Assembly (NCBI GenBank): GCA_047611885.1
Contig: JBLFWT010000001.1
Location: forward strand, 1-36,097
DNA length: 36,097 bases
Direction: 5' to 3'
From: Candidatus Saccharimonadales bacterium
Lineage (GTDB): Bacteria; Patescibacteriota; Saccharimonadia; Saccharimonadales; SZUA-47
Positions 22,764 to 27,259 of the stretch are shown here, in pieces. The notes below the pieces were generated by a model. The model was given only the letters and a program-made list of their open reading frames with translations. It did no database searches and was not told the DNA's origin. A program made the position numbers and the translations under genes. Within the stretch, counting starts at the first letter, position 1, and every line of letters starts with the position of its first letter.

Positions 22764-23158
22764 TGGCTGAACAACACTATACATACGCTATTGGTAGACG
22801 AAAAAGCGCTACAGCAAAGATCCGCCTAACTAACGGTAAAGGCAACATCACAGTAAACAAAGTAACGGCTGCTGAATACTTTGCTAACGCTAATATGCTG
22901 CTAGAAGACCTACAGACTCCATTTAAAGCTATAGACGACAACAAGTACGATGTATCTGTTGTGGTCGACGGTGGTGGACATGCTGGACAGATCGACGCTA
23001 TCAAGCTAGGCATCTCTAAAGCACTAGTTCTGAAAAACGAAAGCCTAAAGGATACGCTTAAAAAAGCCGACCTACTAGGAAGAGACCCAAGACAACGCGA
23101 ACGTAAGAAGTTCGGTCTTAAGGGCGCAAGAAAACAAAGACAGTTCACAAAACGTTAA
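22763..23158 (+). CDS. rpsI: 30S ribosomal protein S9
   Basis: 131 aa with GRRKSATAKIRL and RDPRQRERKKFGLKGARKQRQFTKR. Confidence 0.97.
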   Translation: MAEQHYTYAIGRRKSATAKIRLTNGKGNITVNKVTAAEYFANANMLLEDLQTPFKAIDDNKYDVSVVVDGGGHAGQIDAIKLGISKALVLKNESLKDTLKKADLLGRDPRQRERKKFGLKGARKQRQFTKR

Positions 23159-23181
23159 TTGGTTTTATATAATTAGCGATT

Positions 23182-23236
23182 GAGAGCCTCCTGATTAATG
23201 GTATGTATACTATTAATGAAGGAGGCTCTTTGATTT
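23182..23236 (+). terminator. Long hairpin terminator ending the ribosomal block
   Basis: GAGAGCCTCC (23182-23191) pairs with GGAGGCTCT (23221-23229). The upper stem is imperfect and AT-rich, and a T-rich tract follows. Confidence 0.7.
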
Positions 23237-23272
23237 CTACTGATATGTAACTAACCATTTACCCTTTAAAAG

Positions 23273-23281
23273 TGGTAAACT
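23273..23281 (+). promoter_or_regulatory. Extended -10 promoter (TGgTAAACT) 8 nt before the trpS ATG (probably leaderless)
   Basis: A TGn plus -10 motif with no SD between it and the ATG at 23290. Confidence 0.4.
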
Positions 23282-23289
23282 TAGACTAG

Positions 23290-24321
23290 ATGAGTAAACA
23301 AATTGTACTAACTGGAATTAGATCAAACGACGAACCCACTCTAGGGAACTATATTGGGGCCTTTAAGCCCATGTCCGATATGGCGAAAAAGCAGTCGAAA
23401 GATTACAATGTTCACATGTTCGTTCCTGACCTACATAGCTTTACTACCCCTATTGAATTTGGTAAGTTTTATGAGCGCACGATGCACAACCTACGGTTAT
23501 TCGTTGCATGTGGATTACCCTTAGACAACGACTCAATCTTTATCTATAGGCAGAGCTTTGTTCCAGCGCACAGCGAGCTGACTTGGATTTTAGACAACTT
23601 TACTGGTTTTGGAGAGCTTAGCAGGATGGTAGAGTTCAAAGACAAATCAACTAGACTAGACACTGACCGTGTAAGTGTAGGGCTATTTAACTACCCGGTA
23701 CTAATGTCCGCTGATATCCTTTTATACGGAGCTACATGGGTGCCAGTAGGCGAAGACCAGCGTCAACACCTAGAATTCACCAGGACAATTGCAGAAAGAC
23801 TGAACAACAAGTTCAACTTATCATTAGTAGTTCCTGAAACTATTGAGAACCAGCAGAAATTCGTAGGGCGCAGTGAAGCCCCTAGGATTCGTAGCCTACG
23901 TAACCCATCCAAGAAGATGAGTAAGAGCATAGATGACCCTGCCGGAACAATACTGCTTTCAGATACACCAGAATCAGCCTCTAAAAAGATTATGTCTGCA
24001 GAGACTGATAACCTAGGCAAGATTAACTACGACTGGCAGAACCAACCTGGCGTAACCAACCTATTGGCAATATTGGGTGCGTTAACTGATCAACCTCAAA
24101 AATCGGTTAATGCTGAATGGGTAGGGAAAGAACGATATGGAGACCTTAAAAAGGCCGTATCTGACGTTTTAAGCAACTTTCTGCAGGATCTGCAGACGAA
24201 ACTTAGTGCAGTTGACGACGAAGCCTTAATAAAGCACCTTGAAGCTTCAGAGACGCGCATGAATATAGTTGCTAACGAAACACTTCTCACTATCCAAAAG
24301 GCTATTGGCCTTAGGATTTAA
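23290..24321 (+). CDS. trpS: Tryptophan--tRNA ligase
   Basis: 343 aa, class I. It has the TLGNYIGA variant of the HIGH motif typical of TrpRS, and KMSKS. Confidence 0.9.
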   Translation: MSKQIVLTGIRSNDEPTLGNYIGAFKPMSDMAKKQSKDYNVHMFVPDLHSFTTPIEFGKFYERTMHNLRLFVACGLPLDNDSIFIYRQSFVPAHSELTWILDNFTGFGELSRMVEFKDKSTRLDTDRVSVGLFNYPVLMSADILLYGATWVPVGEDQRQHLEFTRTIAERLNNKFNLSLVVPETIENQQKFVGRSEAPRIRSLRNPSKKMSKSIDDPAGTILLSDTPESASKKIMSAETDNLGKINYDWQNQPGVTNLLAILGALTDQPQKSVNAEWVGKERYGDLKKAVSDVLSNFLQDLQTKLSAVDDEALIKHLEASETRMNIVANETLLTIQKAIGLRI

Positions 24322-24322
24322 C

Positions 24323-25174
24323 ATGGCAAAAGAGTACTTAGAAATAACAGAAGAAATAGGCGTCGCGAGAATAGACAAGCTTATTGCTGACACTTTCCCG
24401 CAATATTCTAGATCTGCTCTAAGCAAGTTGTTCTTAATGAACCTAATTAAAAGAGACGGGATAAGTCTTAGGCCTGGCGAAAAGGTCAGACCAGGAGCAG
24501 TGATTGAATACGACCTAGGGCCGCTACAAGAAACACCGGATGTTATACCTCTACCAATAATATATGAAGACGACAATATTACAGTTGTTAACAAGCCTGC
24601 TGGCATAATATCTCACGCAAGAGGACGTTTCTGGCAGGAAGCATCCGTAGCTAGCTTCATAAGAGACCGTATTAGCGGCATGGAAGGTGAACGAGGCGGC
24701 ATAGTACATAGATTAGATCGAGCTACATCAGGAGTAATGATTTGTGCTAGAAACGAAGCGTCGCTAAAGTTCTTTCAGAAACAGTTTCACGACAGACTAG
24801 TTCTTAAGTCATACATTGCAATTACTTCCGTATGTCCCAAAGAAAAAGAAGCAAAAATAATTGCTGCTATTGCCAGAAACCTGAAAGATCCGAAGACATT
24901 CCATGTAAATACAACTGGTAAAATAGCAGAGACTCACTATAAGGTACTTAAAGAAGAAAAGAAACGCTACACAGTAGAGCTGAAACCTAAAACAGGCCGA
25001 ACCCATCAGCTAAGAGTGCACCTGAACTATATTAACTGCCCGATAATCGGTGACGAACTATACGGAGGAGACAAGAATGTACGACTCCTGCTCCATGCTC
25101 ATAAGCTAACCATCAAGCTGCCTGACGGAAAATCTAAAACTTTTACTGCACCACTACCAGAAGAGTTTAAGTAG
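24323..25174 (+). CDS. RluA-family 23S rRNA pseudouridine synthase (RluD-like, with an S4 domain)
   Basis: The start is moved to the ATG at 24323 (MAKEYLEI), 1 nt after the trpS stop. It has the catalytic HRLDRATSG motif and a GRTHQLRVH motif. Confidence 0.88.
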   Translation: MAKEYLEITEEIGVARIDKLIADTFPQYSRSALSKLFLMNLIKRDGISLRPGEKVRPGAVIEYDLGPLQETPDVIPLPIIYEDDNITVVNKPAGIISHARGRFWQEASVASFIRDRISGMEGERGGIVHRLDRATSGVMICARNEASLKFFQKQFHDRLVLKSYIAITSVCPKEKEAKIIAAIARNLKDPKTFHVNTTGKIAETHYKVLKEEKKRYTVELKPKTGRTHQLRVHLNYINCPIIGDELYGGDKNVRLLLHAHKLTIKLPDGKSKTFTAPLPEEFK

Positions 25175-26007
25175 TGCTACTCCACCCAAAGACCAAAGAC
25201 TCAGTAAATGCATATATAGGTAAGCCAAACTCGACACTACTAATCGAAACGGCAGGGGATGAACTGAGCTATTCAGTTGACCTTGCTAAGCACATATACA
25301 GCAGCATAGCTGGCTCAAGCGCAGATCCTGTACTGGAAGTGCAATCAGACAAGTCGATAGGTATTGAGGCGATTAGAGACCTTATCCATACGATGTCACT
25401 TAGCGCGAACAAATCCGACAAAGTATCTAGAGCTGCAATCATACATGATGCACATTTGTTGACTCGTGAGGCACAGAATTCACTATTGAAACTTATTGAG
25501 GAACTACCATCTAGTACTCAGGTCATGTTAGTAGCTTCGAATTCGAATAATCTATTTTCTACTATTAAGTCTAGATGCTACAGCATATCTATACTACCGA
25601 TCAACAAGTCCGATGCCGCTACTTATGCAGAGAAAGACGCTATTGAAGCGAGTAGGATCGATCAAGCCTATCTAGTATCCGAAGGAAAGCCTGGCTTATT
25701 CCTAAGATTAATTGCGGACGATGAGGATGAGTACTTCAAATCTATCAACGTTGCAAAACAGTACATAGGATCTACCGTTTTTGAGAGACAGCAAATGGCT
25801 AAAACTATCACTGACAAAAAATTCAATCTTGATCTATTCCTTCAATCGCTAAAAGTTATAGCAAAATCCGGGCTACATAGATCCAAAACAACAGAAGCAA
25901 AACTAAGATGGAGTTCTACTCTAGAGCAAGTCCTAGATTCTAAAGACAAAATCGACAGGAACGTGAACAAGAAGCTAGCATTACTAGAGTTAAGTGTACA
26001 TTTATAG
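25174..26007 (+). CDS. holB: DNA polymerase III delta-prime-like AAA+ clamp-loader subunit
   Basis: 277 aa with a GTG start overlapping the upstream stop by 1 nt. It has a degenerate P-loop plus AAIIHDAHLLTREAQNSLLKLIEELP...STIKSRC (sensor-1 / SRC motif). Confidence 0.65.
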   Translation: MLLHPKTKDSVNAYIGKPNSTLLIETAGDELSYSVDLAKHIYSSIAGSSADPVLEVQSDKSIGIEAIRDLIHTMSLSANKSDKVSRAAIIHDAHLLTREAQNSLLKLIEELPSSTQVMLVASNSNNLFSTIKSRCYSISILPINKSDAATYAEKDAIEASRIDQAYLVSEGKPGLFLRLIADDEDEYFKSINVAKQYIGSTVFERQQMAKTITDKKFNLDLFLQSLKVIAKSGLHRSKTTEAKLRWSSTLEQVLDSKDKIDRNVNKKLALLELSVHL

Positions 26008-26028
26008 ATGAGTGGTGTAGCAATACAA

Positions 26029-26037
26029 TGATATACT
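26029..26037 (+). promoter_or_regulatory. Extended -10 promoter (TGaTATACT) 7 nt before the ATG at 26045 (probably leaderless)
   Basis: A TGn plus -10 motif with no SD. Confidence 0.4.
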
Positions 26038-26044
26038 ACAAGCT

Positions 26045-26701
26045 ATGAGTTCATTAGTTTTAATACTTATTTTTGGAGCTATCGCGATCCTTACAGGCAA
26101 ACAGAGAGATACTGAATTGTCTCCTATACCTAGGAATCTTAGCGATCGACTAAGTAAGCTGTGGGAAGTAGCTCACCAAGGCATGAAGGAGAATAGACTA
26201 CTAAGAGCTGAGAAGGCTCTACTAACTATCCTGAATATCGACGAGAAAAATGCAGCAGCCTACAATCGACTTGGAATCCTATACGCAAAACAAAAAGAGT
26301 TCAAGGATGCTATAGATTGTTTCGAGATAGCTAGCAGTATCGAGCCCTCAGCCTCTAGTCTGCACAACCTAGGATTAATATACTATGAGACAGAAAACTA
26401 CGAAAAGGCTGGTACAGCCTTCGAGCAAGCTATTAAACTAGAGGATGGGCTAGCAGCTAGACATATAGCCTTCGCTAAAGTGCACGAAAAGCTTAGCAAC
26501 CAAGCGCTAGTGATAGATTCGCTAGAGAAAGCTGTTGAACTCGAGCCTACCAAGGAATCACTAAACCTATTGCTGCATGCATACGCTACACAAGGTCTTG
26601 AAACAGAAGCGAAAGCTATACATAAAAGATTAGACAGGCTAGAAACAGCAACGCAGCCTGCTAAGAAAAAAGTAGCTAGACCAAGAAGAGTTGTAGTCTA
26701 G
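26045..26701 (+). CDS. Membrane-anchored tetratricopeptide-repeat protein
   Basis: 218 aa with an N-terminal TM helix followed by TPR-like 34-aa repeats (AAAYNRLGILYAKQKEFKDAIDCFEIA..., LHNLGLIYYETENYEKAGTAFEQAIKL...). Confidence 0.75.
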   Translation: MSSLVLILIFGAIAILTGKQRDTELSPIPRNLSDRLSKLWEVAHQGMKENRLLRAEKALLTILNIDEKNAAAYNRLGILYAKQKEFKDAIDCFEIASSIEPSASSLHNLGLIYYETENYEKAGTAFEQAIKLEDGLAARHIAFAKVHEKLSNQALVIDSLEKAVELEPTKESLNLLLHAYATQGLETEAKAIHKRLDRLETATQPAKKKVARPRRVVV

Positions 26702-26725
26702 AACAGTAGAGTCATTAGTGGTAAT

Positions 26726-26753
26726 AAAAAAAACACCCTAGTTGGTGTTGTTT
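26726..26753. terminator. Bidirectional hairpin terminator (copy 1)
   Basis: An A-run, AACACC-CTAGTT-GGTGTT, then GTTTT. It serves the TPR gene on the plus strand and the tRNA-side transcript on the minus strand. Confidence 0.7.
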
Positions 26754-26868
26754 TGGTGCAGGGTGTAGGATAACTCCGGTATAATCCGCCCGTTAGTCGC
26801 AGGCGCGACGGGGGATTATCGAACCTCGTTCGTTTCACTCACTGAACGGTTCAAATCCTACAACAGCA
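26754..26868 (-). other. Duplicated tRNA-Tyr 3' fragment (T-stem 3' strand, acceptor 3' strand and CCA) fused to a structured insert with a GC-rich hairpin core; att-like scar or tRNA-derived RNA
   Basis: Nt 26754-26771 repeat the tRNA-Tyr 3' end exactly. TGTAGGA (26764-26770) pairs with TCCTACA (26856-26862) and encloses 85 nt. That interval contains hairpin 26781-26819 (ATAATCC.CCC.GTCGC-loop-GCGAC.GGG.GGATTAT). No 5' acceptor strand, D-arm or anticodon arm is present. Confidence 0.5.
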
Positions 26869-26896
26869 ATAAAAAACACCATAATTGGTGTTGTTT
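26869..26896 (-). terminator. Hairpin terminator directly after tRNA-Tyr (copy 2)
   Basis: The minus strand reads AACACC-AATTAT-GGTGTT followed by TTTTAT. It is near-identical to copy 1, and the substitutions fall in the loop. Confidence 0.7.
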
Positions 26897-26982
26897 TGGT
26901 GCAGGGTGTAGGATTCGAACCTACGAAGGCATAAGCCAACAGATTTACAGTCTGTCGTGTTTGACCGCTTCACTAACCCTGC
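26897..26982 (-). tRNA. tRNA-Tyr (anticodon GTA), class II with a long variable arm, CCA encoded
   Basis: Manual cloverleaf: acceptor GCAGGGT/ACCCTGC, anticodon stem ACAGA/TCTGT with loop CTGTAAA, variable stem GGC/GCC, and T-arm GTAGG-TTCGAAT-CCTAC. Confidence 0.93.
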
Positions 26983-26996
26983 TTGTTATAAGTTAA

Positions 26997-27073
26997 TGGA
27001 GCCACCTGTCGGATTCGAACCGACGACCTGCTGTTTACAAAACAGCTGCTCTAACCAGCTGAGCTAAGGTGGC
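26997..27073 (-). tRNA. tRNA-Thr (anticodon TGT), CCA encoded
   Basis: Manual cloverleaf: acceptor GCCACCT/AGGTGGC, D-arm GCTC/GAGC, anticodon stem GCTGT/ACAGC with loop TTTGTAA, and T-arm GTCGG-TTCGAAT-CCGAC. Confidence 0.93.
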
Positions 27074-27085
27074 ATCTATTACTAA

Positions 27086-27094
27086 ATGATTCTA
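27086..27094 (-). promoter_or_regulatory. Extended -10 promoter (TGcTAGAAT on the minus strand) for the tRNA-Thr/tRNA-Tyr unit
   Basis: The motif ends 15 nt upstream of the tRNA-Thr 5' end. Confidence 0.45.
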
Positions 27095-27141
27095 GCAAAA
27101 ATATTGCACAATTACCAGACGTAAATACAAGTACATCACTG

Positions 27142-27171
27142 TTGACTAGTTATTTTAGATAGTGTTAAATA
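27142..27171 (+). promoter_or_regulatory. Promoter for tRNA-Thr(GGT)
   Basis: TTGACT, a spacer of 17-18 nt, then TGtTAAATA. It ends about 14 nt before the tRNA. Confidence 0.5.
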
Positions 27172-27184
27172 GATCGAGTATGTC

Positions 27185-27259
27185 GCCCAGGTAGCTCAGT
27201 GGTAGAGCGCATCCATGGTAAGGATGAGGTCTCGAGTTCAATCCTCGATCTGGGCTCCA
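27185..27259 (+). tRNA. tRNA-Thr (anticodon GGT), CCA encoded
   Basis: Manual cloverleaf: acceptor GCCCAGG/TCTGGGC, D-arm GCTC/GAGC, anticodon stem CATCC/GGATG with loop ATGGTAA, and T-arm TCGAG-TTCAATC-CTCGA. Confidence 0.93.

Follow-up and report, generated by a model that had tools for sequence, protein, structure and literature searches.

The 178-bp RtT (rttR) repeats behind tyrT and tyrV of Escherichia coli were reportedly first seen in 1978 by Egan and Landy, and Rudd in 1999 and Bosl and Kersten in 1991 are said to be further sources on the RtT/TLR elements of this species. Direct repeats of a tRNA 3' end that run from the T-loop on are also the classic footprint of an integrase. The tRNA-linked repeats (TLRs) are defined by their location behind a tRNA or rRNA gene and by their last 18-19 bp, which are the 3' end of that gene (Stenum et al., 2021; PMC8144298). 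In E. coli K-12, 22 TLRs are spread over ten loci (Stenum et al., 2021; PMC8144298). No function is known for them except for the three 5S-linked TLRs, which bind Hfq and CsrA in vitro (PMC8144298), and the early phenotype of RtT, the sole functional claim for the tyrT unit, has been retracted (Stenum et al., 2021; PMC8144298). In the present analysis, a unit of similar construction was found behind the tRNA-Tyr gene of a Candidatus Saccharimonadales bacterium. It occupies positions 26754-26896 (minus strand, 143 nt) of the window, by which we mean the whole 36,097-nt stretch of DNA analysed. With a probability of roughly 0.72, we consider it a TLR/RtT-type unit, probably a read-through trailer module whose copy number varies by recombination.

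The genome assembly searched comprises 606 kb, is 75% complete and contains 30 tRNA genes according to ARAGORN. The initial annotation had described a duplication of the tRNA-Tyr 3' end together with its terminator, and the analysis confirmed it. A repeat search gave a gapless direct repeat of 44 nt (26728-26771 and 26871-26914) with 42 identical positions (95%). On the minus strand, each copy is composed of ATCCTACACCCTGCACCA, the last 18 nt of tRNA-Tyr, and an intrinsic terminator. The ATCCTACACCCTGCACCA segment spans A58/end of the T-loop, the 3' strand of the T-stem, the 3' strand of the acceptor stem and ACCA. The distal and proximal tRNA ends are identical at all 18 positions (26754-26771 and 26897-26914), and no further copy of the 18-mer exists anywhere in the 606-kb genome, so chance is excluded for the duplication. 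Some details of the first description have to be corrected. There are two substitutions and not three within the gapless 44 nt, and the supposed 1-nt indel in the A-run is a difference of 2 nt (8 against 6 A). The copies are indeed close to each other, with a start-to-start spacing of 143 nt (given as 145) and a spacer of 99 nt (26772-26870; given as about 97). Both substitutions are located at the top or loop of the terminator hairpin, and stems of 7 bp and 6 bp fold in the proximal and the distal copy.

A collapsed or mis-joined repeat would be a trivial source of such a duplication. Several other units of this genome do sit at contig ends (C14/C49, C18), which indicates that such repeats break assemblies. 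The unit considered here, in contrast, is situated inside a 36-kb contig, 9 kb away from its end. A separately assembled Logan contig of run SRR28416755 is 100% identical to window positions 23045-27230, both copies included, which argues against the assembly artefact that the initial annotation had named as a possible refutation. In addition, nine relatives (G001, G002, G004, G005, G017, G022, G025 and G038 among them) have a like unit at the same tRNA. The probability of an artefact is thus close to nil.

The features of the locus are collected in Table 1.

Table 1. Features of the tRNA-Tyr locus and of the unit behind it, with positions in the window
Feature	Position	Strand	Basis
tRNA-Thr(TGT), first in a two-tRNA transcription unit	26997..27073	-	ARAGORN; Rfam tRNA, 72.5 bits
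tRNA-Tyr(GTA), CCA encoded	26897..26982	-	ARAGORN and Rfam
Part of the proximal repeat within tRNA-Tyr (last 18 nt)	26897-26914	-	
Terminator 1: A-tract, hairpin 26875-26892 (7 bp, loop ATTA), T-run	26866..26896	-	Hairpin/repeat search
5' arm, inverted T-arm copy TGTAGGATTTGAACC	26848..26862	-	Inverted-repeat search; 14/15 to perfect complement
Spacer hairpin GTTCAGTGAGTGAAACGAAC and 5' half of T-arm copy GAGGTTCGA	26819..26847	-	Sequence, folds
Type-A core hairpin, TAATCCCCCG-hairpin-CTAACGGGCGGATTA, inside T-loop copy	26782..26818	-	Model R1, 65.5 bits
Linker TACCGGAGTT (family consensus TAC-Y-N-N-AGT), from core to tRNA-identical segment	26772..26781	-	Alignments
Distal copy of the tRNA-Tyr last 18 nt (A58 to CCA)	26754..26771	-	18/18
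Terminator 2: hairpin 26732-26749, T8; direct copy of terminator 1	26724..26753	-	

In its general plan, the unit is a second copy of the last ~25 nt of the tRNA that is split in the T-loop and has its mirror image in front. Terminator 1, which precedes it, belongs to the proximal repeat copy (26871-26914). The inverted match of the 5' arm TGTAGGATTTGAACC was not reached by any of 300 shuffles. In folds, this arm pairs with ATCCTACA of the distal copy, and the GAGGTTCGA region forms a TTGAACC/GGTTCGA helix with the 5' arm. The 37-nt core hairpin (TAATCCCCCG...CGGGCGGATTA) splits the T-loop of the second T-arm copy just after TTCGA. Terminator 2, with a 6-bp stem and a 6-nt loop in its hairpin, also serves a convergent TPR gene that ends at 26701. 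In the predicted RNA fold, the 5' arm and ATCCUACA form a closing stem, a pair of internal hairpins follows, and the tail CCCUGCACCA is free; the z-score is -4.0 when terminator 1 is included and -3.2 when it is left out. Folding of the E. coli unit and of four units from other tRNAs or genomes gave the same arrangement, again with a closing stem, two hairpins and a CCA tail that stays free. The ORF list of the window contains no ORF or gene remnant in the spacer between the tRNA-Tyr copies. Across 26754-26877, ARAGORN and Rfam gave no match to a tRNA model even at E <= 10. A tRNA pseudogene was rejected because only the T-arm and the 3' end are copied and there is no cloverleaf.

This layout is shared with the E. 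coli elements. The unit lies directly behind tRNA-Tyr on the same strand, and its terminal 18 nt repeat the tRNA end from A58 on (18/18), as E. coli TLRs end with the last 18-19 nt of their gene. As in the tyrT unit, an inverted T-arm copy comes first, followed by a direct T-arm that is split in the T-loop after TTCGA. Both types have a GC-rich structured insert that ends with ..AGT, a closing stem with a free ...CCA tail, and possible tandem units. The E. coli tyrV-rttR unit of 178 bp, read directly from NC_000913, contains a trailer and then GGGGAAGGATGAGAAGCTTCG, in which T-arm and acceptor are copied in inverted form, followed by AC, CAAGGTTCGA, a GC-rich insert of 66 nt with the end GAGT, and AATCCTTCCCCCACCACCA. 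Written in the same order, the window unit is TGTAGGATTTGAACC, a hairpin, GAGGTTCGA, an insert ending with GAGTT, and ATCCTACACCCTGCACCA. The Rfam model of RtT (RF00391) gave a full-length match at the exact place and strand of the unit, with a score of 19.3 bits (E = 0.09 for the whole genome) that falls far below the gathering score of 45 bits and is not significant as sequence homology. The same model had no matches to the other units of this genome. The putative kinship with E. coli RtT is one of architecture, without demonstrable sequence homology.

There are further differences between the two systems. The units here have intrinsic terminators of their own, whereas the TLR units of E. 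coli are terminator-free and co-transcribed. The cargo in the present genome is a lineage-specific 37-nt hairpin, and no tpr-like ORF is present. The TLR load is also unequal, with about half of the tRNA genes in less than 1 Mb here against 10 loci in the 4.6 Mb of E. coli.

In a census of the whole assembly, at least 14 of the 30 tRNA genes have an extra copy of their last 18 nt downstream. These are Tyr, Ile, Met, Lys-CTT, Arg-TCT, Glu-TTC (twice), Ser-GGA, Trp, Arg-CCT, Asp, Leu-GAG and His, together with Gly-GCC and Glu-CTC, whose copies are on other contigs. The units are 85-350 nt long, have their own terminator in most cases and sum up to ~3 kb, or ~0.5% of the assembly. Three types of cargo were recognized, each behind several different tRNAs. 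Type A is the core hairpin, found behind Tyr, Arg-CCT, Glu and Ser and in more units on contigs C14, C18 and C37, while one copy on C40 has no tRNA link. Type B, of ~150 nt, follows Lys(CTT), Arg(TCT), His, Trp and Leu(GAG), and type C follows Met and Asp. The sequence of type B includes GGTGAAAACTGCC..GGCAGTTTGGAAA.GAATCTTCAC and GAAGTTCGGGGGTCGC.GAAAGTGA. Types B and C are conserved families and had no match in Rfam. In about 9 of 13 units, a significant inverted 5' arm begins directly behind the terminator. Substitutions in the 5' arm are mostly G-to-A, which gives A.C mismatches in the sense RNA and thus no sign of selection for RNA pairing.

This census bears on the interpretations offered by the initial annotation. 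A single integrative element that was almost completely deleted does not account for the locus, because units with common cargo recur behind at least 14 of 30 tRNA genes and one decayed island does not fit such a distribution. Among the three readings proposed, that of a small gene reusing a tRNA 3' module came closest.

Some units enclose genes. Unit ends resembling tRNA-Glu bracket a 356-aa ORF with a Fic domain on C18 (C18:329-1399, minus strand; locus L013, C18:1-2440), and in relative G033 (locus L106) units with tRNA-Glu-like ends bracket a 210-aa pilin-like ORF. Such units appear to form the boundaries of small variable cassettes, and their position around genes fits a role as recombination sites better than a role as RNA.

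The core hairpin could be studied as a family with the covariance model R1, which was built from 12 core copies. The model found 11 copies in the present genome and placed the core in 24 of 151 sampled genomes of the order, with 1-4 copies in each of the 23 others; when 300 genomes were sampled from the phylum, it was absent from the ~285 others. In 20 fetched loci of relatives, the core is almost always behind a tRNA and on the strand of the tRNA, the tRNAs being Phe, Arg, Glu, Gln, Met, Asn, Gly and Asp. Its left flank in these loci is (G)GTTCG(A/C), and its right flank is TAC..AGT followed by the A58-to-CCA segment of the cognate tRNA. The outer stem was evaluated on 33 distinct copies; its pairing amounts to 94%, and both partners are changed in 6 of its 10 pairs. 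None of 500 shuffles reached the observed values, and slid controls were 37-50% paired. The inner hairpin varies freely in sequence and retains its pairing. The unpaired AAAC, the bulged C and TATAC are nearly invariant and look like a specific binding site. The asymmetry of G.U and A.C pairs, by which an RNA hairpin can be told from a DNA hairpin, offered too few informative pairs. A search of Rfam with the cargo returned no matches.

The core copy on C40, which is not tRNA-linked, sits at a TCGGA|ATTT junction, and a paralogous element in G009 is without the core. The right flanks of the C40 and G009 elements align and the left flanks are not homologous, so the comparison is at most suggestive of an insertion. 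Another repeat of ~100 nt was observed at C40:650-750, C47:3205-3310 and C19:2305-2410 and at locus L138 of G009. Its motif is GGGAGGTGAG.AGCCAGAG...GCGATGAGAGGAGGA.TCAC.CCTCCTCTC with an TTTCGAATTTATTTCG hairpin in front. This repeat is probably structured, is present in several copies per genome in the bacterial family concerned, and has no Rfam match.

The dispersal of a short imperfect palindrome with a bulged base through intergenic regions resembles the REP/REPIN-RAYT systems, and the genome does encode two RAYT-like Y1 transposases (C23:8532-9266 and C50:252-915), for which the best NCBIfam hit, the REP-associated tyrosine transposase, is below cut-off. In contrast to these systems, the core is nearly always tRNA-linked in one orientation, and the palindromes beside the RAYT-like genes are different from it: GCTGTCAAGGAT(C/G)ATCCTTGACAGC with 5 copies in the genome and TAGAGGCCAGGCCTCTA with 3 copies. 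A RAYT/Y1 enzyme as mobiliser of the core was rejected, since each gene is flanked on both sides by its own distinct palindrome and the co-occurrence of core and Y1 transposases is weak (11 of 24 core-positive genomes against 35 of 127 others). A TnpB/IS605 accessory gene was likewise discarded, as PF07282 is absent from the genome.

It may be asked whether the units are functionless, decaying by-products of local events, in which the tRNA end and its terminator were in part duplicated in tandem and a palindrome around the terminator was extended through template switching during replication. Terminator 2 is a direct 95% copy of terminator 1, the terminator pairs of the Ser-GGA and His units are 100% identical, and the inverted arm stands right behind the T-run, so that tRNA end, terminator and arm make up one long quasi-palindrome. 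Decay is visible in some 3' copies and arms as well (the third Glu unit, the Phe unit, and G001/G004). However, the same cargo with covarying stems is found behind many tRNAs and in 24 genomes, a genome smaller than 1 Mb has retained ~3 kb of units, and a tRNA-Glu(TTC) array is common to the present genome and G004, which belongs to another genus, with an identical 37-nt terminator. The occurrence of this array in two genera indicates that some arrays are old. An origin of the second copy by palindrome extension only was ruled out, because terminator 2 is a direct copy and not a reverse complement. A purely local by-product is, on the whole, very improbable.

The tRNA-Tyr locus was examined in 30 relatives, which represent different genera and have rearranged neighbourhoods. 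In this comparison, which the initial annotation had suggested as a check, the arrangement behind tRNA-Tyr varies between zero, one and two units. Of the 30 relatives, 9 have units and about 20 lack them. Two units were found in G025 and G017, and one unit with differing cargo in G038, G005, G002, G022, G001 and G004. In the unit-free relatives, tRNA-Tyr usually runs straight into another tRNA or gene. The 3' copy of the unit follows the species-specific changes of tRNA-Tyr (ATCCTCCAC.., ATCCTACACT.. and ATCCTTCACT..), which means that the copies are kept identical by conversion, by selection or by their mode of origin. A search of metagenomes for same-species contigs, in which empty sites might be seen, found no such contigs, and a contig scan with the neighbouring holB-like protein retrieved distant taxa only.

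The order of genes around tRNA-Tyr is also variable. In window positions 26897-27259, tRNA-Thr(TGT) and tRNA-Tyr are divergent from tRNA-Thr(GGT)-rpmG, while in several relatives tRNA-Thr(GGT) and rpmG come after tRNA-Tyr on the same strand, and the tRNA pair has accordingly been inverted in the present genome. The repeat units occur where tRNA-Tyr closes a transcription unit.

The patchy presence of units and their differing types at tRNA-Tyr of relatives are also what would be expected if the tRNA-end copies were attL/attR-like sites and the spacer were the remnant of an island or a miniature cassette mobilised in trans. Like att scars and CIMEs, the unit is bounded by direct repeats of the tRNA 3' end that begin in the T-loop. 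The bracketing of single variable genes, i.e., the Fic-domain ORF on C18 and the pilin-like ORF in G033, agrees with such a footprint, and the inverted plus direct arm may resemble the symmetric site of a recombinase. Furthermore, two genes for large serine recombinases, C3:349-2095 (~570 aa) and C13:4450-6052 (~533 aa), are convergent with tRNA genes and read into the 3' ends of tRNA-Glu(CTC) and tRNA-Met, and these loci look like elements integrated at tRNA ends. An exact copy of the tRNA-Glu(CTC) end closes a unit on another contig.

Several observations stand against att sites. A tyrosine recombinase domain (PF00589) was absent from the 75%-complete genome and was found in 14 of 14 control genomes. 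The spacer has no gene remnant, and unlike in att scars and CIMEs there is an inverted tRNA-end copy inside the unit, and the spacer is a conserved structured family across many tRNA identities. At least 14 different tRNA ends would each require a matching specificity, and cargo of types B and C lies between the inverted and direct arms, a position barred for a contiguous att site. The large serine recombinase domain PF07508 is very common in the order (102 of 151 genomes) and was found in 2 of 14 control genomes. These enzymes were rejected as the mobiliser since genomes with the core show no enrichment for them (15 of 24 core-positive genomes against 87 of 127 others), and the core does not clearly track the Y1 transposases either. 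The core is absent from viral contigs apart from two exact matches in phage contigs, which are regarded as chance matches because both are within coding sequence and have no hairpin and no tRNA. An att footprint is therefore an unlikely account of the unit.

A more general form of this idea would be that TLR units are gene-less miniature cassettes, composed of a symmetric site (the last 25 nt of the tRNA, inverted and direct) and a terminator, that insert at tRNA 3' ends and are mobilised in trans, for example by large serine recombinases, whose genes adjoin tRNA genes throughout the order. We hold this to be decidedly unlikely. If it were true, the RtT repeats of E. coli would be a product of the same mechanism and not of common descent, and arrays of TLRs would act as landing pads and take up single genes as well, such as those for the Fic-domain and pilin-like proteins.

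The reading of the unit as a TLR/RtT-type trailer module is preferred. Its anatomy, family, covariation and distribution are matters of observation, and its transcription and processing are inferred from E. coli. Having no promoter of its own, the unit would be transcribed only on read-through of terminator 1 by RNA polymerase, and since this terminator looks efficient (7-bp stem, T6), expression of the unit could be very low. The unit RNA would then adopt a closed three-helix structure in which the 5' arm and the T-stem part of the 3' copy are paired and ...CCCUGCACCA-3' is left single-stranded. With the CCCUGCACCA tail single-stranded in the folded RNA, the 3' end of the unit RNA would carry the processing determinant that is found at the end of the genuine tRNA. 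Such an RNA would be similar to the tRNA trailer sRNAs, e.g., 3'ETS-leuZ (cited in PMC8144298), in being a non-coding RNA derived from 3' external sequence of a tRNA operon transcript, and different in that 3'ETS-leuZ has no tRNA-end copy and a known sponge function. Units would be gained, lost and multiplied via recombination between the blocks of tRNA end and terminator, a process that is partly seen in the genomes. The cargo hairpin family common to units of many tRNAs would either move between loci or be under a common constraint.

The TLRs have been a puzzling part of the tRNA and rRNA operons of E. coli since 1978. Saccharimonadales-type bacteria, which are very distant from E. coli, now prove to share the layout of its units, including the point at which the T-loop is broken. 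That about half of the tRNA genes have units suggests either that the design is useful or that a general mechanism keeps generating the units. For annotation, duplicated tRNA ends of the TLR kind should not, without more evidence, be taken as att sites of islands or prophages. The lineage offers a tractable comparative system, since loci are numerous, the cargo falls into three families, the core covaries and units are often gained and lost, and as some relatives are cultivable, the question of what TLRs are becomes approachable.
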